The translations under genes and the position numbers were made by a program. From a virus, in the IMG/VR virus record IMGVR_UViG_3300008266_000014, positions 64,001-128,000 of that record: a stretch of 64,000 bases of DNA, one strand, 5' to 3'. Shown in pieces: positions 7,400 through 23,171 of this stretch. Position 1 is the stretch's first letter. Each line of letters opens with the position of its first letter. The notes below the pieces were generated by a model. That model was not told the origin of the DNA. It ran no database searches and saw only the letters and a program-made list of their open reading frames with translations.

Positions 7400-7917
7400 T
7401 GATATATGATCTTGTACCTCCTGACCATCCTCTATTGAGGACCAAACTTGAGAGGTTTAATTTTACTGATCCCCCCATCAATCCTCATGAGTTGGCTAAC
7501 AATCTTATTGAAACGATGGTGCACTATCAAGGGATCGGTCTCTCAGCTAATCAGTGTGGTCTTCCTTATCGAGTTTTTGTTTTGTGGTCTAACCCAACAA
7601 AAGTCATGTTCAATCCTACCGTGGCAGATGTATCAACCGAAGATATTTTGCTTGAAGAAGGATGCTTGACTTATCCCAATCTTTTTATTAAAATCAAGAG
7701 ACCTAAATTAGTCAGAGTCCGTTACATGGATTCTTTTGGTGAAGCACATACAGACAAATTTACTGGGATGTCCGCTCGTTGCGTTCTTCATGAGGTGGAT
7801 CATCTGAACGGTGTTAACTTCACTCTCAAAGCCAATAAGTTTCATTATGATCAAGCGATGAGGCAGAGGAGCAAGAGAATGAAATCATATAAGGTGCCTA
7901 CATATGAGCAAAATTAA
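7399..7917 (+). CDS. def: Peptide deformylase
   Basis: GIGLSANQCG, EGCL, HEVDH motifs. Confidence 0.95.
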   Translation: MIYDLVPPDHPLLRTKLERFNFTDPPINPHELANNLIETMVHYQGIGLSANQCGLPYRVFVLWSNPTKVMFNPTVADVSTEDILLEEGCLTYPNLFIKIKRPKLVRVRYMDSFGEAHTDKFTGMSARCVLHEVDHLNGVNFTLKANKFHYDQAMRQRSKRMKSYKVPTYEQN

Positions 7918-8755
7918 AGTAGCAGAATTATTTTATAGTCTTCAGGGTGAAGGAAAATACGTTGGGGTACCTAGTGTGTTTCTTCGCACTTTCGGTTGTA
8001 ACTTCACGTGTAGTGGATTTGGAATGCCATCAGGTCAACTTTCTACGGAACGCGAAGCAATTGTAAAGAACATTGACCAGTATAAATCGTATAATGATCT
8101 GCCTCTTGTTCATACAGGCTGTGATTCATATGCAAGTTGGGATCCAAGATTCAAGCACCTGTCTCCGCTGTTTACTACAGACGAGATTGTTGATAAGATT
8201 ATGACACTTCTTCCAGAACAGAAGTGGAACAATGAACATTTAATTATTACTGGTGGTGAGCCTTTGCTTGGGTGGCAACGGTCTTATGAGGATTTGTTGA
8301 ATCATGAAAAGATGGAAGGTCTTTCATCACTTACTTTTGAAACAAACGGAACACAGAAGCTAACAGAAGATTTTAAAAAGTATCTATACAAATATTCTAG
8401 GTTACACAAAGGAAGCACAGAGATTGTTTTCTCTGTCAGTGCTAAGTTAAGTCCGTCAGGTGAGAAGTGGGAGGAGGCAATTCTTCCGGATGTTGTAAAA
8501 GAATATGATTGGTATGGTGAAGTGTATTTGAAGTTCGTTGTCGATAAAGAGACAGATATATACGAAATCGATAGAGCAGTTGCTGCTTATCGTGATGTCG
8601 GTATTCGTGGTGATGTTTATTTAATGCCAGTTGGTGGTACTGACCAACTTTACTTTAACAACTACCGAGCAGTTGCAGAGATGGCAATGAAGCGTGGCTG
8701 GAGATACAGTCCAAGACTACAGGTAGATATATGGAGAAACGCATGGGGAACATGA
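7904..8755 (+). CDS. queE: 7-carboxy-7-deazaguanine synthase (radical SAM)
   Basis: ELFYSLQGEG, FLRTFGCNFTC, CDS, ITGGEP, FETNGT, SPRLQV. Confidence 0.92.
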   Translation: MSKIKVAELFYSLQGEGKYVGVPSVFLRTFGCNFTCSGFGMPSGQLSTEREAIVKNIDQYKSYNDLPLVHTGCDSYASWDPRFKHLSPLFTTDEIVDKIMTLLPEQKWNNEHLIITGGEPLLGWQRSYEDLLNHEKMEGLSSLTFETNGTQKLTEDFKKYLYKYSRLHKGSTEIVFSVSAKLSPSGEKWEEAILPDVVKEYDWYGEVYLKFVVDKETDIYEIDRAVAAYRDVGIRGDVYLMPVGGTDQLYFNNYRAVAEMAMKRGWRYSPRLQVDIWRNAWGT

Positions 8756-8758
8756 TTT

Positions 8759-9199
8759 ATGGACATTACAACGGATGATTTCTTCAAAGCAGTGGCTTGT
8801 CTTCATCAGCAAATCAGAAACTCTGAGGATACGTTTGACAGCGTTGTTGGGATCTCTCGTGGGGGCCTTATTAGTGGCGTTATTCTCTCTCACCGTCTTG
8901 AGATTCCTTTTCGACCTATTGAATGGTCATTAAGAGATTCTCATAGAAAATATATTCCACCCGATATCATTGTTGATGCGTGGGAAGGTAAGAAGATACT
9001 TCTTGTTGATGATATTGTTGATAGTGGGGAAACAATAGTAACAATTAAGAATCGTTTTGGAGATTCTTCTAAAAATGTTAAAGTGGCCTGCCTTGTCTAC
9101 AACAAAGAACAACAGTTAGTTATACCAGATTTTTGGTATGAATCTATTGACAGGAATGAGGATAAGGATTGGGTCAATTTCTGGTGGGAATCTAAATAA
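8759..9199 (+). CDS. Purine phosphoribosyltransferase (gpt-like)
   Basis: GISRGG and LLVDDIVDSGET PRPP-binding motif; C-terminal W..F.WE. Confidence 0.85.
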   Translation: MDITTDDFFKAVACLHQQIRNSEDTFDSVVGISRGGLISGVILSHRLEIPFRPIEWSLRDSHRKYIPPDIIVDAWEGKKILLVDDIVDSGETIVTIKNRFGDSSKNVKVACLVYNKEQQLVIPDFWYESIDRNEDKDWVNFWWESK

Positions 9200-9200
9200 A

Positions 9201-9275
9201 TTCTCATAGCGGCCTTTCTGGACTTCATCCCGCTTTATAAATTCTGCAGGCCTATATCTCATATAGGAGAATTTA
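9201..9275 (+). promoter_or_regulatory. Candidate preQ1-I-like riboswitch in the queD leader
   Basis: P1 AGCGG/CCGCU, loop ending CAUC-CC, AU-rich tail, then CCUAUAU/AUAUAGG hairpin covering the AGGAG SD. Confidence 0.5.
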
Positions 9276-9788
9276 ATGTCTCAAACTATGTTTCCATCAA
9301 AAACATACAAATATGTTTCAACAAAAGAATACCATGATGCATTTCCTTGCGCTTATAGGCAATGGCGTGCAGATTCGCATTGTAATCTGATTCATGGTTA
9401 TTCCTTTTCAATGAAGTTTTATTTTGGTACAGATGATCTTGATGTTCGTAACTGGGCGGCTGATTATGGTGGTCTGAAAGAGCTCAAGGGTGTTCTCGAG
9501 AGTCAGTTTGATCATACCTTGCTTGTTGCGGAGGATGATCCTGAATTGGATTTGTACATGGAGATGCAGCGTAGAAACATTGCCAAGCTAACCATTCTTC
9601 CAAAGTTGGGGTGTGAAGGTCTAGCAGACCAACTTTACAAATACGTAAATGGTGTATATATTCCTGACTACTGGGGTCCTGGTGAAGCCGATCGCCTTTG
9701 GTGCTATCGTGTAGAAGTTCGTGAGACACAAAGCAACATGGCTTTCCGTGAAGGTCATCGTGAATGGAATGAGGACTTGTTTGCGTGA
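9276..9788 (+). CDS. queD: 6-carboxy-5,6,7,8-tetrahydropterin synthase
   Basis: HCNLIHGY, DYGGLK..L..FDH, GCE, VEVRET. Confidence 0.9.
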   Translation: MSQTMFPSKTYKYVSTKEYHDAFPCAYRQWRADSHCNLIHGYSFSMKFYFGTDDLDVRNWAADYGGLKELKGVLESQFDHTLLVAEDDPELDLYMEMQRRNIAKLTILPKLGCEGLADQLYKYVNGVYIPDYWGPGEADRLWCYRVEVRETQSNMAFREGHREWNEDLFA

Positions 9789-11139: not shown

Positions 11140-11216
11140 GGGCCGGAAGCTTAATTGGTATAAGCGTCCGACTCATAATCGGAGGACAGTGAGTTCGAGT
11201 CTCACCCGGCCCACCA
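11140..11216 (+). tRNA. tRNA-Ile2/Met (anticodon CAT)
   Basis: Cloverleaf GGGCCGG/CCGGCCC, anticodon arm ccgac-tcata-atcgg, TTCGA, encoded CCA. Confidence 0.9.
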
Positions 11217-11231
11217 CCTGATGGAGATAAT

Positions 11232-11675
11232 ATGGAAAAGAAGTGGACATTGCCAGTACTAGAAAATCAAAACGGTGAGCTCTATATTGAACTCAATGAT
11301 GAGATTCTCGAAGGGTCTGGTTTGAATATTGGTGATACGTTGAACTGGAAAGACAACAAAGATGGATCTTACAGTCTCACAAAAGCTGAGGGTGATCTCT
11401 TCGTTGTAGATTCCATTAGCGTGTTTCACATCAGGCATGTTGTGAGAGCAAAGAATGCAGAGCACGCGATGGACGAGGTCGTGTGTGATAACGGTAATCT
11501 AAGAGAGTTTAGCCAGAAGCATGTCGATTGTAATATTATTGATGCACGAAAGATCACTGCAGAGGAGTATCTGAATATGTTTGATAAGGATAACTCATAC
11601 CTATCCAGCTGGTCTGAAGATAAAAAGTTGGAGTTCATTAATACCATTGACTACGAGAAGCACTACAAATCATGA
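11232..11675 (+). CDS. Hypothetical with AbrB-like N-terminal domain
   Basis: GELYIEL.DEIL...GL.IGDTLNW..DGSYSL looped-hinge pattern. Confidence 0.6.
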   Translation: MEKKWTLPVLENQNGELYIELNDEILEGSGLNIGDTLNWKDNKDGSYSLTKAEGDLFVVDSISVFHIRHVVRAKNAEHAMDEVVCDNGNLREFSQKHVDCNIIDARKITAEEYLNMFDKDNSYLSSWSEDKKLEFINTIDYEKHYKS

Positions 11676-11830
11676 AAGTTATTGAGAAGTGGTACGAGAG
11701 GCTGCTAGGATATGACTGGCACTATCGACTAAGATCACGGTTTACTTTTCTTGAATGGCTGTTCCTAGCAGCAGCTATTGTGTTCATTGTTTGGTGGCTC
11801 TATGACTGGTTAATTTTAGGAATACTATGA
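11672..11830 (+). CDS. Small membrane protein (52 aa, below ORF-track cutoff)
   Basis: ATGA overlaps at both ends; hydrophobic WLFLAAAIVFIVWWL. Confidence 0.55.
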   Translation: MKVIEKWYERLLGYDWHYRLRSRFTFLEWLFLAAAIVFIVWWLYDWLILGIL

Positions 11831-12177
11831 TGGATACTAATTTACGGCGTGGTTTTTTAAAGAATCTTGGATTCCTTGGTGCATTTGCTTCCGGTGCTGC
11901 ATCAGCAAAGATCGTTATTGAAGAAAAGCTACCAGAAGTTAAGCCAGAACCAAAAGAAGATATATCTCATCTGGCACCAGAGTTTGGTGATCAGTTCGTA
12001 TTACAAGGTAATCGAAAGTACAAAGACTATTCAAATTTAACTGTAGATGGTATTTCTACCTATGGTATTCAAAGTTGGGAGTATGCAAATAGAGTGCAGC
12101 TTGGTGTAGGCAAAGATAATCGTCTTTGGCTACAGATTGGTGATAGCTGGCACAGGGTAGCACTGGAGTCCAGATGA
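11827..12177 (+). CDS. Putative Tat-exported protein
   Basis: N-terminal LRRGFLK twin-arginine motif, hydrophobic stretch, ASA cleavage site. Confidence 0.6.
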   Translation: MMDTNLRRGFLKNLGFLGAFASGAASAKIVIEEKLPEVKPEPKEDISHLAPEFGDQFVLQGNRKYKDYSNLTVDGISTYGIQSWEYANRVQLGVGKDNRLWLQIGDSWHRVALESR

Positions 12178-12833
12178 AAGTAAACATAGGATGCTACAAG
12201 AACTGGATTGGTCCGTACCAAATAGCTGAGAAGTTGATGTTCTGGGCTGATAAGTACGAAGACGATCGAGTACATAGACTTGGTGATCTTCTGGATAAAA
12301 TTCCAGGACTCACCAAGTTTTGTTTGTGGGTTGATAAACACAGACAGCGCAATGTTGAGGTACGCATTGACAAGTGGGACACGTGGTCAATGGATCACAC
12401 ACTCGCTCTTATCATTTTACCAATGCTGAAACAGTTACAAGAAACAAAACATGGATCACAGTTTGTTGATGATGAGGATGTACCTGAAGAACTAAAATCC
12501 ACATCTGCTCCCCCTAAGGAAAATGAGTGGGATACTGATGACAACATTCACAAAAGATGGGACTGGGTTCTTAAAGAAATGATATTTGCTTTTGAATGTA
12601 AGCTGAATGATAACTGGGATGATGAGTTTTGGACCGGAGAATGGGGGGAATCCACGTTCGTTGAGACAGGTGAAGAGCACTTTAATTCGTTGACCAACAA
12701 ATCTGAAAAGTTGTATACTATGCATAACACAGGTAATCGTACTTGTGACTGGGAAGCGCGTCAAAAGGTTCAAAACCGTATTACTAATGGTTTCAGACTT
12801 TTTGGCAAATATTATGAAGGACTTTGGGATTAA
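12174..12833 (+). CDS. Conserved phage hypothetical protein
   Basis: Trp-rich; DKWDTWSMDHTLALIILPMLKQL and GFRLFGKYYEGLWD motifs. Confidence 0.7.
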   Translation: MKVNIGCYKNWIGPYQIAEKLMFWADKYEDDRVHRLGDLLDKIPGLTKFCLWVDKHRQRNVEVRIDKWDTWSMDHTLALIILPMLKQLQETKHGSQFVDDEDVPEELKSTSAPPKENEWDTDDNIHKRWDWVLKEMIFAFECKLNDNWDDEFWTGEWGESTFVETGEEHFNSLTNKSEKLYTMHNTGNRTCDWEARQKVQNRITNGFRLFGKYYEGLWD

Positions 12834-12841
12834 TCTATATC

Positions 12842-13357
12842 ATGAAAACTTTATACGTTGTACTGCTAGCAGCTGCAATTACAGGTTGTTCGAGTCAGAA
12901 GATGGTAAAGATTCCGGATTCAAAAGGAACTGTGCCAGAGTGGTTTGCTGCTGAGCCAGAAAAGCAAGGTAGTGATATCATTGTCACTGCAACAGATACT
13001 TCTCGTGATATGCAGTTTGCGATTGACAAAGCAATGCTACAGGGCCGTGTAGAGCTTGCTAATCGTATTGGTGTTCGTGTTGATTCTCTTGTTCGTGAAA
13101 GCGTCAAAGAAGATTCCGGTGCCAAGATGAAAGATGTTGATCGCGAAGTTGATCGTGTATCCAAGCAGGTAACAAATCAGATGTTATCAATGTATACGCG
13201 TGAGAAGCTAACAGTGATGAAAGAAGATGGTGGGTTCCGTGCTTTCGTCATGTTGAAAATTTCTGAAGATCAGAGTAGGAAACTTTTTGAGTTGAATCGC
13301 CGCAATCCAAAGAATCGTGACGAACAGTTCAGAGAGCTGGAAGTACTTACTCGATGA
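12842..13357 (+). CDS. Lipoprotein (LPP20-like)
   Basis: Lipobox ITGC after a hydrophobic signal; VPEWF motif. Confidence 0.7.
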   Translation: MKTLYVVLLAAAITGCSSQKMVKIPDSKGTVPEWFAAEPEKQGSDIIVTATDTSRDMQFAIDKAMLQGRVELANRIGVRVDSLVRESVKEDSGAKMKDVDREVDRVSKQVTNQMLSMYTREKLTVMKEDGGFRAFVMLKISEDQSRKLFELNRRNPKNRDEQFRELEVLTR

Positions 13358-13383
13358 TCAACGAAAGATATATAGTAAATTAG

Positions 13384-13408
13384 AACCCGAGTTATACTCG
13401 GGTTTTTT
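13384..13408 (+). terminator. Rho-independent terminator
   Basis: aacccgag-ttata-ctcgggtt followed by a T-run. Confidence 0.9.
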
Positions 13409-13422
13409 ATTGTTAAATTAAA

Positions 13423-13965
13423 ATGCCAAATTCTTTTTTTATTAGCGACACTCATTTTGGTCACACAGGTGTATGTAAGTTTCTCAGAGATGATGGAACA
13501 AAACTTCGTCCGTGGGATGATCCAGATGAGATGGATCAGGCTATGATCGAGAATTGGAACAAGACTGTCCGACCGAATGATAAGGTGTACCATCTTGGTG
13601 ATGTGGTGATCAATCGAAAATCATTGAAGACACTTGCTCTTCTCAATGGTGATAAGGTTCTGATCAAAGGTAATCATGATATATTTAAACTTAATGAGTA
13701 TACAGAGTTCTTTCGCGATATAAGAGGGTATCATGTTTTAAATGGCATGATCCTTAGTCATATTCCGATCCACGAAGAAAGCATTGCAAGATTTGGTGTT
13801 AACATTCACGGACATTTGCACTACAACCGTGTAAAGAAGAATGGTGAGATTGATCCTCGCTATTTCAACGTGAGTGTAGAGCAGATTAACTATACCCCCA
13901 TTTCAATTGACGAACTGAGACAGAGAGTGATTGAACAGGGTGGACAAGTGAATTTCAGGAGCTAA
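13423..13965 (+). CDS. Calcineurin-like metallophosphoesterase
   Basis: SDTHFGH, HLGDV, GNHD, HGHLH. Confidence 0.9.
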   Translation: MPNSFFISDTHFGHTGVCKFLRDDGTKLRPWDDPDEMDQAMIENWNKTVRPNDKVYHLGDVVINRKSLKTLALLNGDKVLIKGNHDIFKLNEYTEFFRDIRGYHVLNGMILSHIPIHEESIARFGVNIHGHLHYNRVKKNGEIDPRYFNVSVEQINYTPISIDELRQRVIEQGGQVNFRS

Positions 13966-13967
13966 TT

Positions 13968-14159
13968 ATGTCAGGCAAAGGAAGCAAACCAAGACCTTAT
14001 AGTGTTGACCAAGAAACTTTTGACAAAAATTGGGATGAGATATTCACTAAAGAAAAGAAAATGACACGTGAAGAAGCCCTGCAAGAAATGGTTAGAATCA
14101 GTGAAGAAATGGGATTATATATAGATGATCCTATCGATAATCCGTTAATCAAGAAATAA
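13968..14159 (+). CDS. Small hypothetical protein
   Basis: AGGAG SD; GKGSKPRP..V....F..NWD.IF motif common in phages. Confidence 0.65.
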   Translation: MSGKGSKPRPYSVDQETFDKNWDEIFTKEKKMTREEALQEMVRISEEMGLYIDDPIDNPLIKK

Positions 14160-14160
14160 T

Positions 14161-14234
14161 CCCGGTGTAGTGTAGTGGCAACACGTTGATCTCCAAAATC
14201 AAAATTCGCGGTTCGATTCCGTGCACCAGGGCCA
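14161..14234 (+). tRNA. tRNA-Trp (CCA)
   Basis: Cloverleaf, anticodon loop CTCCAAA, TTCGA, CCA; one C-A mismatch in the acceptor stem. Confidence 0.85.
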
Positions 14235-14263
14235 TTGACATACATATAAATATAATGTATAAT
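14235..14263 (+). promoter_or_regulatory. Consensus sigma70 promoter with nested T4 late promoter
   Basis: TTGACA-N17-TATAAT; TATAAATA at 14245-14252. Confidence 0.8.
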
Positions 14264-14285
14264 CTTTTTGCCGGAGGAAAAATAA

Positions 14286-14942
14286 ATGCAGAAGTTCTCT
14301 AGTTACCTTCTGAACGAGGAAGAGAGAGTTAATGACACTCGTAAGACCCAGGTTGCAACAACTGGTGGTACCTATGAGAAAACAGGTAAGTTCCTCCATC
14401 CACTTCTACAACCAAAATCCAAGATCATTAGCATTGGAGCAGGGTTGGAACACACCAAGGTAGCTTTACAAAGAGGTCTTGGTGGTGAGAAGAGTACTCA
14501 TACAATCCACGATATGGAACCTAATCCCGAAGGGAGAAAGGTAAAACCAGAGTACACCAAAGCCGAGGATATCCCTCATAATCATTATCATGCAGCAGTG
14601 TCACATAATGTATTGAATGTTGTTGAACCTCATGTACGTGAGCACGTTATGCATTCCATCTTCAATTCAATGAAGGAAGGTGGTCATGCAGTGATTGGCA
14701 CACGTAAATGGAAGGGTGATATTGATAAGACAAAAAATGCAGAACCTGGAGACGAACCCAAGTCATTGTGGGTTAAGAAGAAGGGTGGGGCATCTTATCA
14801 AAAAGGTTTTGATGGTAACGAACTAAAAGAATATGTTCATGATTACGCTTCGCGTCACGGGCATGAAGTTAAGGTTACGAACTTGAAAGGCATCGCAGCA
14901 ACTGGCGTCCATGTTCATTTGCTGAAGAAAGCAAAACCGTAA
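14286..14942 (+). CDS. SAM-dependent methyltransferase-like protein with capsid-targeting-like leader
   Basis: ISIGAG motif I, HDMEP, HNVLNVV; N-terminus MQKFSSYLLNEE. Confidence 0.6.
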   Translation: MQKFSSYLLNEEERVNDTRKTQVATTGGTYEKTGKFLHPLLQPKSKIISIGAGLEHTKVALQRGLGGEKSTHTIHDMEPNPEGRKVKPEYTKAEDIPHNHYHAAVSHNVLNVVEPHVREHVMHSIFNSMKEGGHAVIGTRKWKGDIDKTKNAEPGDEPKSLWVKKKGGASYQKGFDGNELKEYVHDYASRHGHEVKVTNLKGIAATGVHVHLLKKAKP

Positions 14943-15029
14943 TAAAGGTGGACATCAAATGGGGCAATGTTTGTAATTATTTTTGTTTTACTTCTACTAT
15001 TTTATATACATAATAGCTTTTGAAGCGCT

Positions 15030-15584
15030 ATGAATATTTTTTTATATGATGATCTCATCGATAGTAATACGGTAGATGAGACAGAGCAGCTTCTATGCGG
15101 TATCTACTTTCCATGGTATTTTCAAAACTCTACCGTGCTACCTCCTGAAGTTTTTGGTATTAGTGGAGGTCCTCTATACGATTTTCAATTCATTCACACA
15201 TTTATTAGGAATGGAGAATTAAACTCTGGTAGTGTGAATCTTCCAATGAAAATTTTTGATATTGTTGCTGAAAGATTGAAACTCAACATACGGCACGTCA
15301 CCAGAATAAAGGCTAATCTTCTCACCACGGGGTTCCCTTCAAGTCAAGATTTAGATCAACAATATCACACCGATCACACGGAAGAAAGCACATATAGTAT
15401 GATTTATTATGTTAATGATTCGGACGGTGATACTGTATTTAAAGACATCAACAACAACGAACAGAGAAGAATAAGTCCGAAAAAAGGAAGAATTGCTTTG
15501 TTTAGATCTAATATTATGCACAGAGCAACCAACCCTACTCACCATAAGCGCAGAGTTGTCATTAATTACATTTTTCAAGTATAA
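15030..15584 (+). CDS. 2OG-Fe(II) oxygenase
   Basis: HTD, IYYVNDSDGDT, H, RRVVINY. Confidence 0.85.
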   Translation: MNIFLYDDLIDSNTVDETEQLLCGIYFPWYFQNSTVLPPEVFGISGGPLYDFQFIHTFIRNGELNSGSVNLPMKIFDIVAERLKLNIRHVTRIKANLLTTGFPSSQDLDQQYHTDHTEESTYSMIYYVNDSDGDTVFKDINNNEQRRISPKKGRIALFRSNIMHRATNPTHHKRRVVINYIFQV

Positions 15585-15585
15585 T
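15556..15585 (+). promoter_or_regulatory. sigma70-type promoter for ncRNA/tRNA-Asn
   Basis: TTGTCA-N18-TATAAT; predicted start about 15591-15593. Confidence 0.55.
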
Positions 15586-15592
15586 AACCAAT

Positions 15593-15764
15593 CATTTTTG
15601 AGAGTCCTTAAGCGAGGAGCCTAACCAGCGACCTGACTGCCGAGGGAAAACAATACCTCTTTCAATTGCATCTGGAAACCAGATATGTACGTGGTGCGTA
15701 CGCAAGACAATGAGGGGCCAACAAAATTCTGGCTTAAAAGGACATGGCAGTACTCTCAAAAATG
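15593..15764 (+). ncRNA. Candidate structured ncRNA (172 nt)
   Basis: Perfect 13-bp terminal stem, multiple internal hairpins, ACTGCC/GGCAGT pseudoknot; abuts tRNA-Asn. Confidence 0.65.
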
Positions 15765-15765
15765 T

Positions 15766-15841
15766 TGACCGGTAGCTCAGTCGGTAGAGCAGGTGACTGT
15801 TAATCACCCTGTCGCTGGTTCGATCCCAGCCCGGTCAGCCA
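15766..15841 (+). tRNA. tRNA-Asn (GTT)
   Basis: Cloverleaf TGACCGG/CCGGTCA, anticodon loop CTGTTAA, CCA. Confidence 0.95.
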
Positions 15842-16068
15842 TCTTAGATGTGGTGTTATGGAAAATCCCTGTGTACCAGGGCAGTGCACTGTCAATGGGT
15901 CCTCTGTCTAGCTAGCACGGCCAATACAGTTGATATAAACAAAAACACAGGGACGCCTATACAAATAAGTTTATTCGTTAAAAGCAAACAGTAGTAGGTA
16001 TTACTACTCATAACATGGCATCACACCTAAGATGGATATATACTCTTTTAAATATCACAAAGGAAAAA

Positions 16069-16836
16069 ATGAAGCATCTGTTTTTTACCTTTGCATTACT
16101 ATTCTCGGGAAGTAGTTTTGCAGGATCACAATTCGTACTCAACGTATCAAAAAATGAGGTTGTACTAGACTCAAGAGCAGAGGTTGTAAGACCAATTGCA
16201 AGTGTTACAAAATTAATGACAGCACTTGTTGTTATTGATAGTAATCTTGATATGCAGGAAAAGATTCCATATAGAGGATCAAAATCTGTTCCAGGCAAAC
16301 CAAGAACGAGAGAAGAACTCTTATCACTAATGTTAATTAAGAGTGATAATAATGCAGCAGAGTCTCTTGCAAAAAGTCATCCGCTAGGACGATCTGGATT
16401 CATCTATTTGATGAACAAGAAAGCGCAAGACATAGGAATGCAGTTTACTTCATACGAAGACCCTTCTGGTATAGGTATTAACAACCAGAGTACAGCCAAA
16501 GACTTGTCGTTGTTGTTGAAACATACTTCCAACTATTCTAAGATTACAGAGGTTGCATCCTCAACAAATTACACCCTTGTTGAACCTGTTAGCAGCAGAA
16601 AGAAAAAGAAGAAGTCGAAGGGGTATAGAGTGATTAGTGTTAATAACACCAACTTTAGACTTCTTAATGAATATGAAGAAATAAAGATTTCTAAAACTGG
16701 TTTTACTAACCCTGCTGGTAAATGTCTTGCAATGTTCATTAACAAGCACGGTGATAACTTTGCCGTTGTAATCCTTGGTGAGAGGGACATGAGAGCAGTA
16801 GAGAAAGTATCAAGAAACATCATTAATAGTTTATAG
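16069..16836 (+). CDS. D-alanyl-D-alanine peptidase (S11, PBP7/PbpG-like), secreted
   Basis: Signal peptide; SVTK (SxxK), SDN, KTG catalytic motifs. Confidence 0.9.
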   Translation: MKHLFFTFALLFSGSSFAGSQFVLNVSKNEVVLDSRAEVVRPIASVTKLMTALVVIDSNLDMQEKIPYRGSKSVPGKPRTREELLSLMLIKSDNNAAESLAKSHPLGRSGFIYLMNKKAQDIGMQFTSYEDPSGIGINNQSTAKDLSLLLKHTSNYSKITEVASSTNYTLVEPVSSRKKKKKSKGYRVISVNNTNFRLLNEYEEIKISKTGFTNPAGKCLAMFINKHGDNFAVVILGERDMRAVEKVSRNIINSL

Positions 16837-16911
16837 CCCACTTAGCACAATTGGTAGTGCAACTGATTTGTAATCAGTAGGTTGGGAGTTCGAGTCTCTC
16901 AGTGGGCACCA
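16836..16911 (+). tRNA. tRNA-Thr (TGT)
   Basis: Cloverleaf, loop TTTGTAA, CCA. Confidence 0.95.
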
Positions 16912-16912
16912 T

Positions 16913-16989
16913 CTCGGTATAGCACAGCCTGGTAGTGCGCCTGGTTTGGGACCAGGAGGTCGGGAGTTCGATCCTCTCTACCGAGACCA
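16913..16989 (+). tRNA. tRNA-Pro (TGG)
   Basis: Cloverleaf, loop TTTGGGA, CCA. Confidence 0.95.
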
Positions 16990-16996
16990 GTAATAG

Positions 16997-17079
16997 GCGT
17001 CTGTGGCGTAATTGGTAGCCGCGCTGGATTTAGGTTCCAGTCTTTCGGGGTGGGGGTTCGAGTCCCTCCAGACGCACCA
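16997..17079 (+). tRNA. tRNA-Leu (TAG)
   Basis: Class II cloverleaf, loop TTTAGGT, CCA. Confidence 0.92.
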
Positions 17080-17080
17080 A

Positions 17081-17165
17081 GCCCAAGTGGTGAAACGGTA
17101 GACACAGGAGACTTAAAATCTCCCACCCATTGGGTGTGCCGGTTCGATTCCGGCCTTGGGTACCA
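17081..17165 (+). tRNA. tRNA-Leu (TAA)
   Basis: Class II cloverleaf, loop CTTAAAA, CCA. Confidence 0.93.
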
Positions 17166-17186
17166 CGTATAAACTAACGTATAGAC

Positions 17187-17843
17187 ATGCTAGAAGACAT
17201 AGCAACAGAGTTGAAGAATAAACAAATATTCTACAGACCAAATATCTTAAGCAATATATTTTCTTGGCAAGAATTAGAGAAACTAATAAATCTTAGACCG
17301 TTCATTAATTCTCAAAGAGTTCATATTATATCTGATCAAGAAGATGATTGGAAATGGCCGTATCAAAATTGGTTGACAGATGTTAATACATACCCTCCAA
17401 CACTTTTTGAGAATTTGATTCGCAAGTACACTGTTTTTCTTTCTGACTGTTCTAGAGTAAATGAGAAAATTAATTCCATATGTGGTGAAATAGAAAATAT
17501 CACTGGATGTTCCTCCGATGCTCATTTATACTTTAATTTAGTAGGAAATAATTCGGAAAGTTTTGGGATACATTGTGATATATCAAATGTCCTTGTTTTG
17601 CAGGTAGAAGGGACTACTAGGTTTAAAATATGGTCAAAGTTCAACAAAAACAGAATGGTTGATAACTTGGGTCACATAGACCAACCACCTGTTGTGGATG
17701 TGGAAATGAAACCAGGGGACGTTGTATACATTCCAAAATATTACTATCACCAGGGCATATCCACAACAAAACGGCTGTCAATAAGTTTTCCTCACTTCGA
17801 AAGTGAGGATCTGCATCAAGATAGAAAATGGATAGAATTATAA
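17187..17843 (+). CDS. JmjC/cupin-type 2OG oxygenase
   Basis: FGIHCD..VLVLQVEG, MKPGDVVYIP..YYH, RLSISF. Confidence 0.85.
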   Translation: MLEDIATELKNKQIFYRPNILSNIFSWQELEKLINLRPFINSQRVHIISDQEDDWKWPYQNWLTDVNTYPPTLFENLIRKYTVFLSDCSRVNEKINSICGEIENITGCSSDAHLYFNLVGNNSESFGIHCDISNVLVLQVEGTTRFKIWSKFNKNRMVDNLGHIDQPPVVDVEMKPGDVVYIPKYYYHQGISTTKRLSISFPHFESEDLHQDRKWIEL

Positions 17844-17854
17844 GGTGATATGAT

Positions 17855-18055
17855 ATGAGTATAGAGTTAAAAAGAGAGCAGATTGAGAAGCTGATTGACA
17901 TTTACAACCACTTCCACGAAATTCAATCATTCACAATTGCTCTGGAAGAAGATTCTGATATGATAACAGTGAGCTTTAATATTAATGATGTTAAACCAGA
18001 GCACACTACAGAAGATCGATTTGATAAACCATTTAAGAAACAGGTATTCAAATGA
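17855..18055 (+). CDS. Hypothetical protein
   Basis: AGGTG SD, compact packing. Confidence 0.6.
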   Translation: MSIELKREQIEKLIDIYNHFHEIQSFTIALEEDSDMITVSFNINDVKPEHTTEDRFDKPFKKQVFK

Positions 18056-18264
18056 AAATAGACATCAGTGATGAAACAGTATACAATCTCGTGGTTGATG
18101 TACTGATGAATGATTACAAGTATCTGTGTAGTGACATTGAACGATACCAAGATAAGACAATTCTTTCTGATATTGAACAAGAAGATTTAAGTAACTGGAT
18201 CAGTCACCGAGATGCTCTGGAAATAACAATTAACTACTATGCAGGATATAACAGCTGGAAATAA
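18052..18264 (+). CDS. Hypothetical protein
   Basis: ATGA overlap. Confidence 0.6.
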   Translation: MKIDISDETVYNLVVDVLMNDYKYLCSDIERYQDKTILSDIEQEDLSNWISHRDALEITINYYAGYNSWK

Positions 18265-18265
18265 T

Positions 18266-18715
18266 ATGAGTGATTATAGAGACACATACTACCTTGATGT
18301 TGGATTTACATGCTCCTGCTTTGACTTGTTTCATGCTGGTCATGTGTTGATGTTACAAGAAGCACGCTCACAGTGTGACTATCTGATAGTGGGATTGCAG
18401 ACCGATCCAACAATTAATCGACCAGAGAAGAACAAACCAGTCCAGTCAATCTTCGAACGATACGTTCAACTTAAAGCATGTAAGTATGTCGATGAGATTG
18501 TGATATATGAAACAGAAAATGATCTGTTGAATATTTTGAGATCTTATCGTATAGATAAAAGGTTTGTTGGTGAAGAATATCAAGACAGAATGTTTACTGG
18601 ATCTGATATCTCAACCATTGAGATAATTTATAACTCGAGAAGACACAACTTCTCAACAACAGAATTACGAAAGCGTGTTGCTGACTGCAACGCAATTGAT
18701 AGTTTAGTTAAGTAG
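18266..18715 (+). CDS. Cytidylyltransferase (TagD-like)
   Basis: FDLFHAGH (HxGH), LIVGLQTDP, KYVDE, FSTTELR. Confidence 0.9.
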   Translation: MSDYRDTYYLDVGFTCSCFDLFHAGHVLMLQEARSQCDYLIVGLQTDPTINRPEKNKPVQSIFERYVQLKACKYVDEIVIYETENDLLNILRSYRIDKRFVGEEYQDRMFTGSDISTIEIIYNSRRHNFSTTELRKRVADCNAIDSLVK

Positions 18716-18741
18716 TATCCTATCTGACCGTAGACGAGAAT

Positions 18742-18816
18742 CTGGCTATAGTTAAATGGATATAACAAGGGTCTTCTAAACCTTAATTCCTGGTTCGATT
18801 CCAGGTAGCCGGACCA
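18742..18816 (+). tRNA. tRNA-Arg (TCT)
   Basis: Cloverleaf, loop CTTCTAA, CCA. Confidence 0.92.
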
Positions 18817-18843
18817 AAAAATCAGGCCATATTTTTATTTCAT

Positions 18844-19212
18844 ATGATTTTAGTAAAAACGTATATTGATAAAAGCGACATTCATGGTGTAGGGGTGTTT
18901 GCTGCTGAGTTCATATCTAAGGGAACCAAAATTTGGGAAATTAATAGACAGCTAGATTTAGAGTGGGCAATCGAAGAGTTTATTGAGTTACCTCGTGAGG
19001 CTCAGCTCTATATTCAGCACTGGGGATATAGAGATCCTGAAACATTAATGTATAGACTAAGTTTTGATAATGATAGATTTATGAATTGGAGTAGTGATCC
19101 TAACGTAATTGGTAATTCTAAAGAAACATTTGCAGCAAGAGATATAGACAAATATCAAGAGCTGACTTATCCTTTCAGTGAAGATCTGTTTTCTCAGTTT
19201 ACTTCAAGTTAA
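18844..19212 (+). CDS. SET-domain protein
   Basis: SDIHGVGVFAAEFISKG, RFMNWSSDPN, AARDI..QELTY. Confidence 0.8.
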   Translation: MILVKTYIDKSDIHGVGVFAAEFISKGTKIWEINRQLDLEWAIEEFIELPREAQLYIQHWGYRDPETLMYRLSFDNDRFMNWSSDPNVIGNSKETFAARDIDKYQELTYPFSEDLFSQFTSS

Positions 19213-19213
19213 T

Positions 19214-19288
19214 GCGGGTGTAACTCAGTGGTAGAGTGTCAGCCTTCCAAGCTGTTCGTCGCAGGTTCGATCCCTGTCACCCGCTCCA
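19214..19288 (+). tRNA. tRNA-Gly (TCC)
   Basis: Cloverleaf GCGGGTG/CACCCGC, loop CTTCCAA, CCA. Confidence 0.95.
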
Positions 19289-19901: not shown

Positions 19902-20222
19902 ATGCTTCAGCAGACAAATAAGTTAATGAAAAGTAGCATCATATCAAAGCAGTTTAATTATGTTGAATTTGACCCTAACAACAAAAAACATAGAATAGCT
20001 TTCTTTCAGTTTAAAGTCTCTGGTAAGTGGCCAGATAATATGAGATTTAATCTTGATCCGTTGTATGGAAATGTTCCGTCAATGATTAATCAGAAACTTC
20101 TTGATTTTTATTTTGCAAGAGATAGAGCTATCCCTAAAGATCTCAAAGAGAAATATAGTGAGAAGAAACTAGTATACCCTATAAGTGACATGACTGAAAT
20201 GACAGGAGAAGAAATTGAGTGA
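19902..20222 (+). CDS. Hypothetical protein
   Basis: GAGG SD; FDPNNKKHR..F..F...GKW motif. Confidence 0.6.
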   Translation: MLQQTNKLMKSSIISKQFNYVEFDPNNKKHRIAFFQFKVSGKWPDNMRFNLDPLYGNVPSMINQKLLDFYFARDRAIPKDLKEKYSEKKLVYPISDMTEMTGEEIE

Positions 20223-20913
20223 CAATGATCCCAAAGTTGATGTTTCGAATCTAATTAAGCAGCGATTGAAAGCTGCGAATGCACAATACAAAGCATGTGA
20301 CAATATCTCTTCATACATTAACGAAGAAGAGATACCCCTTCTCATAGATGAGGTCAAGTATAAGTTTCAGCAGGTACTTGACTCTCTCATTATCGATACA
20401 GAAAACGATCCTAACTCCAAAGACACAGCAAAGCGTCTTGCAAAGATGTATGTGTATGAGTTGATGTCTGGTCGTTATGAACCAAAACCAGATGTCACTT
20501 CATTTCCTAACGAAGGTGAAAACAGATTCGAAGGAATGCTGGTTGTTCGAGCAGAGATTCGTTCTATGTGCTCGCATCACCACCAGCCAGTGAAGGGTGT
20601 TTGTTATATTGGTATTGTTCCTACTGGTCGAGTAATTGGATTGTCGAAGTATGTTCGTATTGCACAATGGTGTGCACGTCGTGGACAATTACAAGAAGAA
20701 TTAGTTAATCAAATTGCAGGGGAAATTATGAAAGCAACAGAGACAGAAAATGTTGCTGTGTATATTGAGGCCACACATGGATGTATGGATAACAGAGGAG
20801 TAATGGCACACTCATCAATGACTCAGACATCTGCTGTGCATGGATTGTTCCACAACAATAGTGTCAAGCAAGAATTCTTTGACAACATTAAATTACAGTC
20901 GATGAGATGTTGA
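20215..20913 (+). CDS. folE: GTP cyclohydrolase I
   Basis: TAKRLAKMY, SMCSHH, GLSK..R, QLQE, HGCM..RG; TTG start with AGGAG SD. Confidence 0.95.
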   Translation: MSDNDPKVDVSNLIKQRLKAANAQYKACDNISSYINEEEIPLLIDEVKYKFQQVLDSLIIDTENDPNSKDTAKRLAKMYVYELMSGRYEPKPDVTSFPNEGENRFEGMLVVRAEIRSMCSHHHQPVKGVCYIGIVPTGRVIGLSKYVRIAQWCARRGQLQEELVNQIAGEIMKATETENVAVYIEATHGCMDNRGVMAHSSMTQTSAVHGLFHNNSVKQEFFDNIKLQSMRC

Positions 20914-20944
20914 CACTGAGTATAACTTTTTATAAGGTAGTTAA

Positions 20945-21157
20945 CTGAGAGATTTATCAGTATTTGCTCAAGAAGTATGGGCTGCAGAAAGTCTTGAAGC
21001 TAAACGTAGTGCAATGCTATGTTTATTAGGGGAGCTTCAACACAGGCAAAAGTTGCAACAGTTCATCAAGGAGGTAGAAACAACTACATCTTTGAAACGT
21101 CTCGACTTCTTGGCTGCTAATCTCGTGTTAAGAGACGGTGACCCTGTAATTAAATAA
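20945..21157 (+). CDS. Hypothetical protein with apparent CTG start (70 aa)
   Basis: Stop-free frame (M)RDLSVFAQEVWAAESLEAKR...DPVIK fills the gap; AAGGT SD upstream; in-frame TAA just before CTG. Confidence 0.55.
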   Translation: MRDLSVFAQEVWAAESLEAKRSAMLCLLGELQHRQKLQQFIKEVETTTSLKRLDFLAANLVLRDGDPVIK

Positions 21158-21186
21158 TTTTTTAACATGTAATAAGGAGAAATCTT

Positions 21187-21405
21187 ATGACTCAATATGA
21201 AAAAATCATCAACTTCCTAGACTCTGGTAAAGAGTTGACCGCATCGCAAGCAGCATCGCGCTTTGGTATTACTAATTTATCGGCACGTGTTCATGAACTA
21301 CGTGAAGATGGTTACAAGATTGCAACCGTAAAGACTAAGTCTGGTAAGTCGGCTTATGTCAAGGCTACTGGTAAGAAAGTTGCTCGTGCAACAGCACGTG
21401 CTTAA
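21187..21405 (+). CDS. Small winged-HTH DNA-binding protein
   Basis: LTASQAASRFGITNLSARVHELREDGYKI; strong TAAGGAG SD. Confidence 0.8.
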   Translation: MTQYEKIINFLDSGKELTASQAASRFGITNLSARVHELREDGYKIATVKTKSGKSAYVKATGKKVARATARA

Positions 21406-21422
21406 TTAATAGCACTTCTACC

Positions 21423-21453
21423 AACCCTCTCTGCAAAACAGAGAGGGTTTTTT
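21423..21453 (+). terminator. Rho-independent terminator
   Basis: aaccctctctg-caaaa-cagagagggtt followed by Ts. Confidence 0.9.
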
Positions 21454-21456
21454 CGT

Positions 21457-21933
21457 ATGCAAAGACTGACAACCAAATGGACTGACACTCTCGAGGAAGC
21501 TTTTGGTCCTCAAGTAAAGAGAGCAAGAGATGCTGAAATCATGGTAATGGATGCATTTACTAAATGGGGGTATGAAGTAATAGATCATGAGTCAGATAGG
21601 GATTTACAGACTCAAGGGCTTGATTTTTCTATACGAAAGAATACGTGGAGAAACTTTTACTCAATCGATGTGAAGGCCAACCTCGACAGCTACGGTTCTT
21701 ATTACGTTGATCTAAAACCAGATGGGTGGTTGTTTAACCCTAAAAAGACAAGTGATAGAATCTGTCATGCCTGCGTTGAGACAGGGTGGTTCCTCTGGTA
21801 CGGTAGAGACGACATGAAGAACTATATTCATAAAATGAATTTTGATATTTCCGAAGAAACAGTATTCAAGATAACTCCAAAAATTAAACTTGATTTTGTG
21901 ACACGCCGGAATGCTAACAAGGAGAGAGAATGA
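21457..21933 (+). CDS. Putative PD-(D/E)xK nuclease
   Basis: E..V.....GY, GLDF, IDVK pattern. Confidence 0.5.
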   Translation: MQRLTTKWTDTLEEAFGPQVKRARDAEIMVMDAFTKWGYEVIDHESDRDLQTQGLDFSIRKNTWRNFYSIDVKANLDSYGSYYVDLKPDGWLFNPKKTSDRICHACVETGWFLWYGRDDMKNYIHKMNFDISEETVFKITPKIKLDFVTRRNANKERE

Positions 21934-22313
21934 TAAAAACGTCAATATGGGTCACATTCCAAAAAGAAGGAATACACAAATATCCCCAAGCAGCAACAGA
22001 CCCCAAGCTAGTCCACGTAGCATTCCTTGCAAATCCCCATCGTCACATCTTCCACTTCAGAGTCGAATTAGAAGTTTTTCATGATGACCGTGACATAGAA
22101 TTTATTTTACTGAAGCGTGAGTTGGAGGAGCTATATAATACAGGAACTCTCATGCTGAATAATATGTCATGTGAAATGATAGCAAGAGAGTTGCTGGCGT
22201 ACATATCAGAATACTACCCTGGTCGCGACTGCACCATCAGTGTTAGTGAAGATAATGAAAATGGATGCACACTTCATTATGTGAAGGAAAGTCCTAAATC
22301 TGATTGGAAATAA
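21930..22313 (+). CDS. QueD-like T-fold protein, DpdL-like (putative CDG decarboxylase)
   Basis: LANPHRHIF matches LxxxHRHxF; RDIEFI, SCEMIA, VSEDNENG. Confidence 0.7.
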   Translation: MIKTSIWVTFQKEGIHKYPQAATDPKLVHVAFLANPHRHIFHFRVELEVFHDDRDIEFILLKRELEELYNTGTLMLNNMSCEMIARELLAYISEYYPGRDCTISVSEDNENGCTLHYVKESPKSDWK

Positions 22314-22316
22314 ATT

Positions 22317-23171
22317 ATGGCTACATTCTGTCACATCGCTCCCATCCCACACCTAGATATCATCAAAGGATCAAAGGCTCATCTTGCGCTTGCACATCTT
22401 ATCGAGCAAAGCGAAGAGTACACTTCCTTTTATGCCAAGGAAAGACAAAATGGCAGTATGGTAATTCTAGATAATTCTGCTTTTGAAATGTACAAGCAAG
22501 GGAAGCCAATGTATGAAATACCCAAGCTGATTGAGATGGCAGATCGACTGAAAGCAGATTATGTTGTAATGTCGGATTATCCAAACGACTACAGCAAAAC
22601 AACAATCAGTGCTGCAAAAGAAATTGCACCTGTTTTGAAGGACAAAGGATACGGTACTTTCTTTTGTCCACAGTCTAAGATTGGAGACAAGGGTGATTTG
22701 TTTAATTGTTTTGAATGGGCCGCTGATTCTGATCTCGTTGACTATATCGGTGTATCAATTCTTGCAATTCCAAATGCTTATGGTGTGGAAAAAAAGAACA
22801 AACTCCAGCGTTTTGTTAGCCGGTATATGTTTATGCAGGAGTTGAGAGATAGTGGTGTACTTGATCATGCAAAGTCCAAAGGTAAAAAGATCCACATGCT
22901 CGGTATGTTAGATGGTCCTGGTGAGATTAGATTGATGGAATCATTTAAAGACTATATCGATACGTGGGACAGTAGTGCTGCGATGTGGTTAGGTCTTCAT
23001 GCCGGTAAAACATTCGACAGTTCCCCAACAGGACTGATAAACGGTAAGTATGAGGAAGAAGTAGACTTTGATTATCAAAATGATAAAGGTAAGTTGAATG
23101 CAATTATCAACATGAGTATAATCAACAACTATATTCAAATGTACCTAACACCGGAGAGCGATGATGAGTAA
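22317..23171 (+). CDS. TGT/DpdA-like transglycosylase (DpdA3-like)
   Basis: ILDNSAFE (cf. DSGAF), HMLG, DTWDSS TIM-barrel motifs; next to deazaguanine genes. Confidence 0.55.
   Translation: MATFCHIAPIPHLDIIKGSKAHLALAHLIEQSEEYTSFYAKERQNGSMVILDNSAFEMYKQGKPMYEIPKLIEMADRLKADYVVMSDYPNDYSKTTISAAKEIAPVLKDKGYGTFFCPQSKIGDKGDLFNCFEWAADSDLVDYIGVSILAIPNAYGVEKKNKLQRFVSRYMFMQELRDSGVLDHAKSKGKKIHMLGMLDGPGEIRLMESFKDYIDTWDSSAAMWLGLHAGKTFDSSPTGLINGKYEEEVDFDYQNDKGKLNAIINMSIINNYIQMYLTPESDDE

Follow-up and report, generated by a model that had tools for sequence, protein, structure and literature searches.

The small RNA pseudoknot described here lies closest to the preQ1-I riboswitch. In preQ1-I, the cytosine that directly precedes the P1 3′ strand acts as the specificity base while the closing G-C pair forms the floor of the ligand pocket; the specificity motif is either UC or AC, and three types (I-III) are distinguished (PMC11625349). 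The two other preQ1 classes, preQ1-II and preQ1-III, are much larger HLout pseudoknots that control queT, and among the preQ1 switches covered in a 2024 review there is none of the ON type (PMC11625349). The element described below is, like preQ1-I, predicted to form a small H-type pseudoknot 5′ of a queuosine/deazaguanine gene; with preQ1-II and preQ1-III it has in common a pseudoknot tied to queuosine-related genes, although those two far exceed it in size.

Two further systems offer comparisons for the way in which such a leader could act on translation. The Vibrio vulnificus add adenine riboswitch is a translational ON switch, where the ligand-stabilized aptamer pulls a strand away from the helix that sequesters the Shine-Dalgarno (SD) sequence. 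The same ON logic is proposed here, whereas add is bacterial, is built around a three-way junction and recognizes another ligand. The leader of the phage T4 gene 32 mRNA contains a pseudoknot operator that governs translation and is bound by the gene's own protein product. It is a leader pseudoknot as well, but the two have no sequence likeness and gene 32 has no link to que genes. The 7-deazaguanine pathways of phages protect their DNA against restriction enzymes. To our knowledge, phage-carried riboswitches are rare, and we know of none for these pathways; no description of the present element was found among about 8.4 million open-access papers and preprints.

The leader of the queD-like gene

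The window analyzed here is a 64,000-nucleotide stretch of a 155-kb record from an uncultured phage. In it, a 76-base gap upstream of a queD-like gene holds a small predicted RNA pseudoknot (Table 1). An initial annotation of the same DNA had proposed a preQ1-I-like aptamer at this site, followed by a hairpin burying the SD sequence, and every base that it assigned to P1 (AGCGG/CCGCU), to the CAUC of the loop, to the tail, to the SD hairpin and to the AGGAG itself is found where it was placed, with all of its base pairs located within 9208-9269. The L3-side tail is UUAUAAAUUCUG (9235-9246), while CCUAUAU (9251-9257) and AUAUAGG (9261-9267) pair across a loop of 3 nt. The annotation also put forward an alternative helix between GGCCU (9211-9215) and AGGCC (9248-9252). 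Both segments are in the sequence, but this helix shows no consistent covariation among relatives and was rejected; the conserved partner of AGGCC is instead the loop segment GGACU (9220-9224).

Table 1. Features of the queD leader and pathway genes, in window coordinates.
Feature	Position	Strand	Remarks
QueE-like radical SAM gene	7904..8755	+	phrog_2076, E 4.7e-57
Purine phosphoribosyltransferase (PRTase)-like gene, 146 aa	8759..9199	+	8 nt 5′ of P1; between QueE-like and QueD-like genes
TAAATA box	9193..9198	+	9 nt 5′ of P1; overlaps stop codon of PRTase-like gene
P1 5′ strand, AGCGG	9208..9212	+	paired in 143/143 leaders
L1, CCUUUCU	9213..9219	+	alignments A1, A2
P2 5′ strand, GGACU	9220..9224	+	placed via homology with P2 of relatives
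L2, UCAUC	9225..9229	+	UCA >=90%, C9229 invariant; ends in CAUC 9226-9229
P1 3′ strand, CCGCU	9230..9234	+	pairs with 9208-9212
L3, UUAUAAAUUCUGC	9235..9247	+	family consensus WUAYAAAYUCUGC
P2 3′ strand, AGGCC	9248..9252	+	C9251 and C9252 double as anti-SD
SD-sequestering hairpin, CCUAUAU-CUC-AUAUAGG, 7 bp	9251..9267	+	predicted -4.3 kcal/mol; 0.0 without C9251, C9252
Shine-Dalgarno AGGAG	9265..9269	+	6 nt 5′ of ATG (9276); 3/5 bases in hairpin stem
queD-like gene, 170 aa, PTPS family (Pfam PTPS)	9276..9788	+	signature CNLIHGY (CxxxHGY)
GTP cyclohydrolase I, FolE	20215..20913	+	context gene
158-aa ORF	21457-21933		between FolE and DpdL-like gene
DpdL-like T-fold gene	21930..22313	+	LxxxHRHxF signature as LANPHRHIF
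DpdA3-like gene, phiST gp042 homologue	22317..23171	+	E 1.1e-9; 25% identity over 240 aa, E 1e-12

The aptamer predicted from these parts is an H-type pseudoknot of about 45 nt. Its P2 helix comprises the pairs G9220-C9252, G9221-C9251, C9223-G9249 and U9224-A9248 around an A9222·G9250 mismatch, and is among the weakest of the family (-3.1 kcal/mol, where the family averages -5.3). Folded as a single sequence, the leader does not beat chance, with a minimum free energy (MFE) of -15.9 kcal/mol (z = -1.16) that 27 of 200 shuffles equal. When the window was searched with all 4227 Rfam families, tRNAs alone reached the gathering score, and around the element (9100-9400) nothing appeared at E<=10, preQ1-I, -II and -III included. 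It is thus the comparison with related leaders that carries the case.

A family of pseudoknots upstream of phage queD genes

Relatives of the leader were gathered in several samples. A protein search with the window QueD returned 80 IMG/VR loci at 84-93% identity, and with the window included the element is present in 64 of these 81 leaders and missing from the other 17. A search with CCGCUWUAYAAAYUCUGC, which covers the P1 3′ strand and L3, found at least 120 contigs, and nearly all of those listed also carry the P1 5′ strand and L2, neither of which had been searched for. For the clade with the canonical QueD motif CxxxHGH, a protein-based sample has the element in about 12 of 80 leaders, with about 68 lacking it. 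More than 290 contigs of uncultured phages have the element upstream of a QueD-family gene. Among the matches listed, the next open reading frame belongs to the QueD family in 175 of 181 copies, and in 108 of 109 copies of a separate set, with the few exceptions having an extra ORF between element and queD. The QueD proteins encoded downstream, canonical CxxxHGH members among them, are only 25-95% identical to that of the window, so the RNA tracks gene function and not one lineage. A covariance model built here recovers one copy per locus, including one in the 64-kb window, and finds no match in leaders without the element.

Several loci depart from the simple arrangement. ORFs of 45-282 aa separate the element from queD in contigs L044, L059, L126, L137, L169 and L177, and the 282-aa ORF of L169 and L177 resembles what may be a mobile endonuclease-type insertion. 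Contig L089 has, at positions 5-74, a second and diverged copy (27 bits) with P1 ACCAG/CUGGU and an L3 ending in UUCGCC; it precedes a 309-aa methyltransferase-like ORF that itself lies just 5′ of a normal element and queD.

Beyond these contigs the element is scarce. In prokaryotes, represented by one genome for each of 185,579 species, a 19-mer search gave 22 occurrences, 21 of which are chance matches and one a full element. This sole full copy (L209) is in NZ_JBBAKG010000001.1, a 183-kb phage-like contig of a ‘Haliscomenobacter sp.’ MAG, where it adjoins QueD-like and GTP cyclohydrolase genes; the contig represents a phage or prophage that was binned by mistake, or else it hints at a host in Bacteroidota. 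A consensus-like leader gave chance matches only by blastn against 50,697 deposited phage records, and when DNA of the region was compared with cultured phages the coding part alone matched, in two Dinoroseobacter phage records. Judged from these searches, the family appears nearly confined to uncultured phages.

Across the 143 distinct leaders, P1 is always paired, its GG and CC are invariant, and it covaries at three positions. Compensatory variants include AGAGG/CCUCU, AGUGG/CCACU, ACCGG/CCGGU and UGCGG/CCGCA, the last coming from the canonical CxxxHGH clade sample. When contigs were chosen on the P1 3′ strand (CCHCU) alone, which gave at least 120 contigs, 112 of them with the L2 motif, variant 3′ strands (CCUCU or CCACU) had their exact complement 5′ in 99 of the 112 matches listed; the remaining 13 have no exact 5-nt complement, and the examples inspected retain four of the five pairs. 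The loops are conserved to differing degrees. L1 varies in length between 4 and 9 nt and reads (C/U/A)CU plus 1-8 nt, with C at its second and U at its third position in at least 90%. L2 takes the form (U)UCAY(U)C, its UCA being kept in at least 90% of the 143 leaders, and all listed copies have a C directly 5′ of the P1 3′ strand, where it follows a U, C or A. L3 is 13 nt long with the consensus WUAYAAAYUCUGC, where two A residues and UCUG are invariant in the 143 leaders; UCUGC is also retained in the protein-based sample of leaders.

P2 joins a loop segment to the bases directly 3′ of UCUGC, and its 5′ strand is 4-7 nt long within the family. The strands differ widely between relatives while remaining complementary, as in GGCG/CGCC, GGUG/CACC, GGCA/UGCC, GACA/UGUC, AGCA/UGCU and GACG/CGUC, and further in GGCUU/AAGCC, GGCAU/AUGCC, GGGC/GCCC, ACGAC/GUCGU, GACUU/AAGUC, GACAA/UUGUC and AUGC/GCAU. 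Duplexes between loop and tail average -5.28 kcal/mol for cognate strands, compared with -4.02 kcal/mol for permuted tails (0 of 2000 permutations). Covariation was counted on alignment A3, a covariance-model alignment of 96 copies that was fitted to P2, so that its counts lean to P2. In A3, 94.8% of P1 and P2 cells are paired, each of the four modelled P2 pairs is changed on both sides in some sequences (5, 22, 25 and 47), and the covariation score is 0.351; shuffles give 0.109, with 0 of 500 attaining the observed value, and sliding the partners yields no more than 0.073. The MAFFT and covariance-model alignments do not hold every P2 length class in register, and the P2 counts are conservative for the 5-7 bp classes and fitted for the rest. 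RNAalifold, run on the 143 leaders, recovers P1 alone, because P2 is a pseudoknot and the leaders carry two types of platform. A hairpin inside the P1 loop was ruled out, as its loop would be 2 nt in the UCUUGGCG class.

An alignment of queD leaders had been suggested in the initial annotation as one way to examine its proposal of a riboswitch-like pseudoknot with an SD-sequestering hairpin 5′ of a phage queD-like gene. That alignment bears the proposal out, since P1 and P2 both covary and the leader is conserved 5′ of homologous queD genes. We consider it very probable that this conserved, covarying pseudoknot is real and that it controls queD translation.

Promoter-like signals around the element

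Conservation at such a site might also act at the level of DNA, with a promoter for queD and a hairpin that weakly terminates the upstream gene taking the place of an RNA switch. A sigma-70-like promoter, TTTACA-N17-TGnTAnnnT, does extend across L3 and the hairpin loop in 104 of the 143 leaders, and the site in L036 (964-992; TTTACA-17-TATAAT with an extended -10 TG) scores 11/12. In addition, of 151 distinct upstream regions, about 85% have TAAATA or TAAGTA at a distance of 4-12 nt 5′ of P1. The sigma-70-like site is absent, however, from the window copy and from the leaders termed type B below, both of which retain the aptamer; no terminator-like site was found in the window copy or in L036; and the covariation of P2 with what would be a spacer, the G·U pairs of the SD hairpin and the invariant UCUG are left unexplained by promoters. 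We therefore regard conservation at the DNA level as a very improbable account of the element. The sigma-70-like site may nevertheless underlie part of the L3 conservation and, in relatives, could give rise to queD transcripts free of the aptamer. The TAAATA box may be a T4-type late-promoter core that starts the transcript at the aptamer, which we keep as a lead only because TATAAATA is not enriched in the window.

Translational platforms and the predicted direction of control

The P2 3′ strand ends in C9251 and C9252, with which the SD hairpin begins; P2 and the hairpin are of comparable strength and mutually exclusive. Among the leaders of this arrangement (type A, n = 109), the SD hairpin has a predicted energy of -5.09 ± 0.68 kcal/mol, which falls to -0.51 ± 0.38 kcal/mol without the two C residues. 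Its stem varies among relatives from G-C to A-U and also to G·U. About 30 leaders carry a different platform, CAAACUUGCUA...AAGGAGACUAGAGAUG, here called type B; in 27 of 30 MFE folds of such leaders, the partner of the P2 3′ strand is the start-codon zone. The type-B sequence (CAAACUUGCUACCUU..AAGGAGACUAGAGAUGGC) stands in for the CCUAUG..CAUAGG hairpin in L041, L086, L117 and about 30 others. Because the P2 3′ strand is the blocking strand in both of these unrelated platforms, formation of the knot should free translation in types A and B alike. Predicted energies thus point to an ON direction, an unusual arrangement given that ON switches are uncommon on biosynthetic genes.

Comparison with preQ1-I

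How far the element resembles preQ1-I depends on which part is compared. In both, the 5-bp P1 follows the pattern AGnGG/CCnCU and is closed by a G-C pair, (C)AUC is present with a C in the specificity position just 5′ of the P1 3′ strand, and L3 begins A-rich (WUAMAAA). The RF00522 consensus reads aGuGG-UUCGuAAaCcUC-CCaCu-AUAAAAAACUAAGg, with ..CcUC directly before CCaCu around the P1 3′ strand. In contrast, the initial annotation had noted that the usual UUCG after P1 is missing, and this holds throughout the family, where L1 is nCU plus 1-8 nt in place of the UU(CG) of preQ1-I (UUCG in the consensus, types I and III). The element further differs in its P2, which at 4-7 bp is G+C-rich and longer than that of preQ1-I, and in its 13-nt L3 with the invariant UCUGC end. 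The P2 3′ strand serves as anti-SD in type A and as anti-start-codon in type B, whereas in preQ1-I it includes or abuts the SD itself, which becomes hidden on ligand binding; the predicted logic here is ON rather than OFF.

The Rfam search against preQ1 models proposed in the initial annotation came back empty. RF00522, for which membership is set by a gathering score of 39 bits, has no match at E<=10 at the element in the window, in the 155-kb record or in 10 diverse relatives, and the preQ1-II (RF01054) and preQ1-III (RF02680) covariance models give none at E<=10 either. The best RF00522 score in the whole record, 19.9 bits at record positions 151043-151083 on the minus strand, belongs to an A-rich hairpin that neighbours a terminator and lacks a que gene, and was set aside as chance. 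A genuine preQ1-I from Atopobacter scores 53.3 bits against RF00522 and is not found by the covariance model built here. The description of the element as preQ1-I-like thus stands for the topology, the P1 pattern, CAUC and the specificity C, but not for membership in any of the three Rfam preQ1 classes.

These comparisons bear on the simplest explanation, that the leader is an ordinary preQ1-I riboswitch (RF00522) which senses preQ1 and turns queD translation OFF. The H-type pseudoknot, the consensus-pattern P1 of 5 bp, the CAUC with its C 5′ of the P1 3′ strand, the A-rich start of L3 and the que-gene context would all be expected of one. The mutual failure of the covariance models, an L1 without UU or UUCG, the length and UCUGC end of L3, a P2 3′ strand that is anti-SD and not SD, and a record in which QueC and QueF were not found make this explanation very unlikely. 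We do not file the element as a preQ1-I member, although by analogy it plausibly works like preQ1-I at the pocket.

Pathway genes and candidate ligands

The queD-like gene (9276-9788) is the sole PTPS-family gene of the record. Its CNLIHGY signature, compared with the CxxxHGH of QueD, has the second zinc-binding His replaced by Tyr, and phmmer gave no match for the protein among PDB sequences. In Cellulophaga phage phiST, FolE, QueD, QueE, DpdL and DpdA3 accompany the full replacement of dG by 2′-deoxy-7-deazaguanine, and the signature of DpdL is LxxxHRHxF (10.1101/2023.04.13.536721). The possibility that the regulated gene is itself a DpdL was ruled out, since its Cys is retained (CxxxHGY) and the LxxxHRHxF signature is found in another, DpdL-like gene of the window. 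That gene lies in a phiST-like module (20215-23171) composed of FolE, the 158-aa ORF and the DpdL-like and DpdA3-like genes, of which the DpdA3-like protein (22317-23171) has no Pfam match. Nine tRNA genes are encoded on the plus strand downstream of the que genes (window 11140-19285).

The initial annotation saw no queC or queF in the window and suggested that the ligand might differ from preQ1. Neither QueC nor QueF was found in the entire record, nor was a Pfam-TGT, and Pfam searches for QueC and TGT across the record and five large relatives gave nothing convincing. With QueC and QueF not found and DpdL-like and DpdA3-like genes present, a ligand other than preQ1 is a reasonable suggestion. 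A phage with FolE and QueE-, QueD-, DpdL- and DpdA3-like genes but neither QueC nor QueF probably places 7-deazaguanine (dDG) or dCDG into its DNA, judging from gene content, and the endpoint of the pathway is most likely 7-deazaguanine or CDG in DNA and not preQ1. In the five large element-bearing relatives, neither a DpdA3-like nor a TGT gene was detected, so the element is not tied to the DpdA3 module. The product of the PRTase-like gene (8759-9199), which is of the xanthine/hypoxanthine-guanine type, might salvage guanine released by base exchange in DNA, or might ribosylate deazapurines.

A proposed ON switch for queD

The leader shows the features general to riboswitches, being a conserved and covarying leader with conserved unpaired bases, a link to one gene function and an expression platform that has a strand in common with the aptamer. 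We propose that 9208-9269 encodes an mRNA element that acts in cis and belongs to a family restricted to phages; it would consist of an H-type pseudoknot aptamer and a translational platform for the queD-like gene. The proposal is built on what is observed in the family, namely two helices with their covariation, a strict link to queD and a strand shared between P2 and the SD hairpin. In the absence of the knot, C9251 and C9252 would close the hairpin 9251-9267, burying the AGG of the SD and keeping translation low. Once P2 has formed, the two C residues would be occupied, the hairpin would collapse and the SD would be free, giving an ON switch. P2 would most likely be stabilized by a small ligand whose guanine-like Watson-Crick face is read by C9229, for which 7-deazaguanine, CDG, preQ0, preQ1, guanine and a pterin substrate are candidates. 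In essence, we infer ligand binding, the identity of the ligand and the direction of the switch, and put the probability that the element is a metabolite-sensing ON-type riboswitch with a fold related to preQ1-I at roughly 0.55. Against it stand the lack of an Rfam match, the mismatched and weak P2 of the window, the fitting of A3 to P2, the unusual ON direction for a biosynthetic gene, the sigma-70-like site of many relatives and the queD genes that have no such leader.

The pseudoknot could also be real and respond to no metabolite at all. It might be an operator for a phage or host protein, for which the protein-bound operators of T4 gene 32 and gene 43 are precedents, or a ligand-free kinetic or thermal switch, where the knot could form first during transcription and later relax to the SD hairpin. 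Structure, conservation and strand sharing with the SD hairpin fit this explanation equally well, no known aptamer model matches the element, and the family is confined to phages, its one full copy among 185,579 prokaryote genomes lying in a phage-like contig. On the other hand, the unpaired positions that are conserved resemble the preQ1-I pocket, with its specificity C, G-C closing pair and A-rich L3, and the element tracks queD genes of 25-95% protein identity on contigs of widely differing sizes. A metabolite is favored over a protein partner because it would be easier to hold constant across such diverse phages, and we judge a metabolite-free pseudoknot unlikely, though it keeps appreciable weight.

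Within the preferred reading of a metabolite-sensing ON switch, a narrower possibility is that the element is a phage-specific class, a remote and expanded offshoot of preQ1-I, that recognizes a base with a guanine-like face, drawn from the 7-deazaguanine DNA-modification pathway which the phage itself encodes, and turns queD translation ON. The candidate ligands would then be 7-deazaguanine, CDG, guanine released by base exchange and the pterin substrate. We hold this tentatively, at somewhat less than even odds.

With hundreds of copies, clear covariation, a preQ1-I look and the opposite predicted wiring, the element constitutes a compact orphan aptamer, and the short list of candidate ligands makes it testable for structural and riboswitch biologists. 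If the ligand is not preQ1, the element would add to the cases in which a known fold has been adapted to a different ligand, and synthetic biology may gain a small new part for ON switching. Should the phage-specific class be confirmed, no earlier ON-type switch with the preQ1-I fold, and no earlier riboswitch dedicated to DNA hypermodification, would be known to us. For phage biology, the element would give a view on the timing of deazaguanine synthesis during infection.
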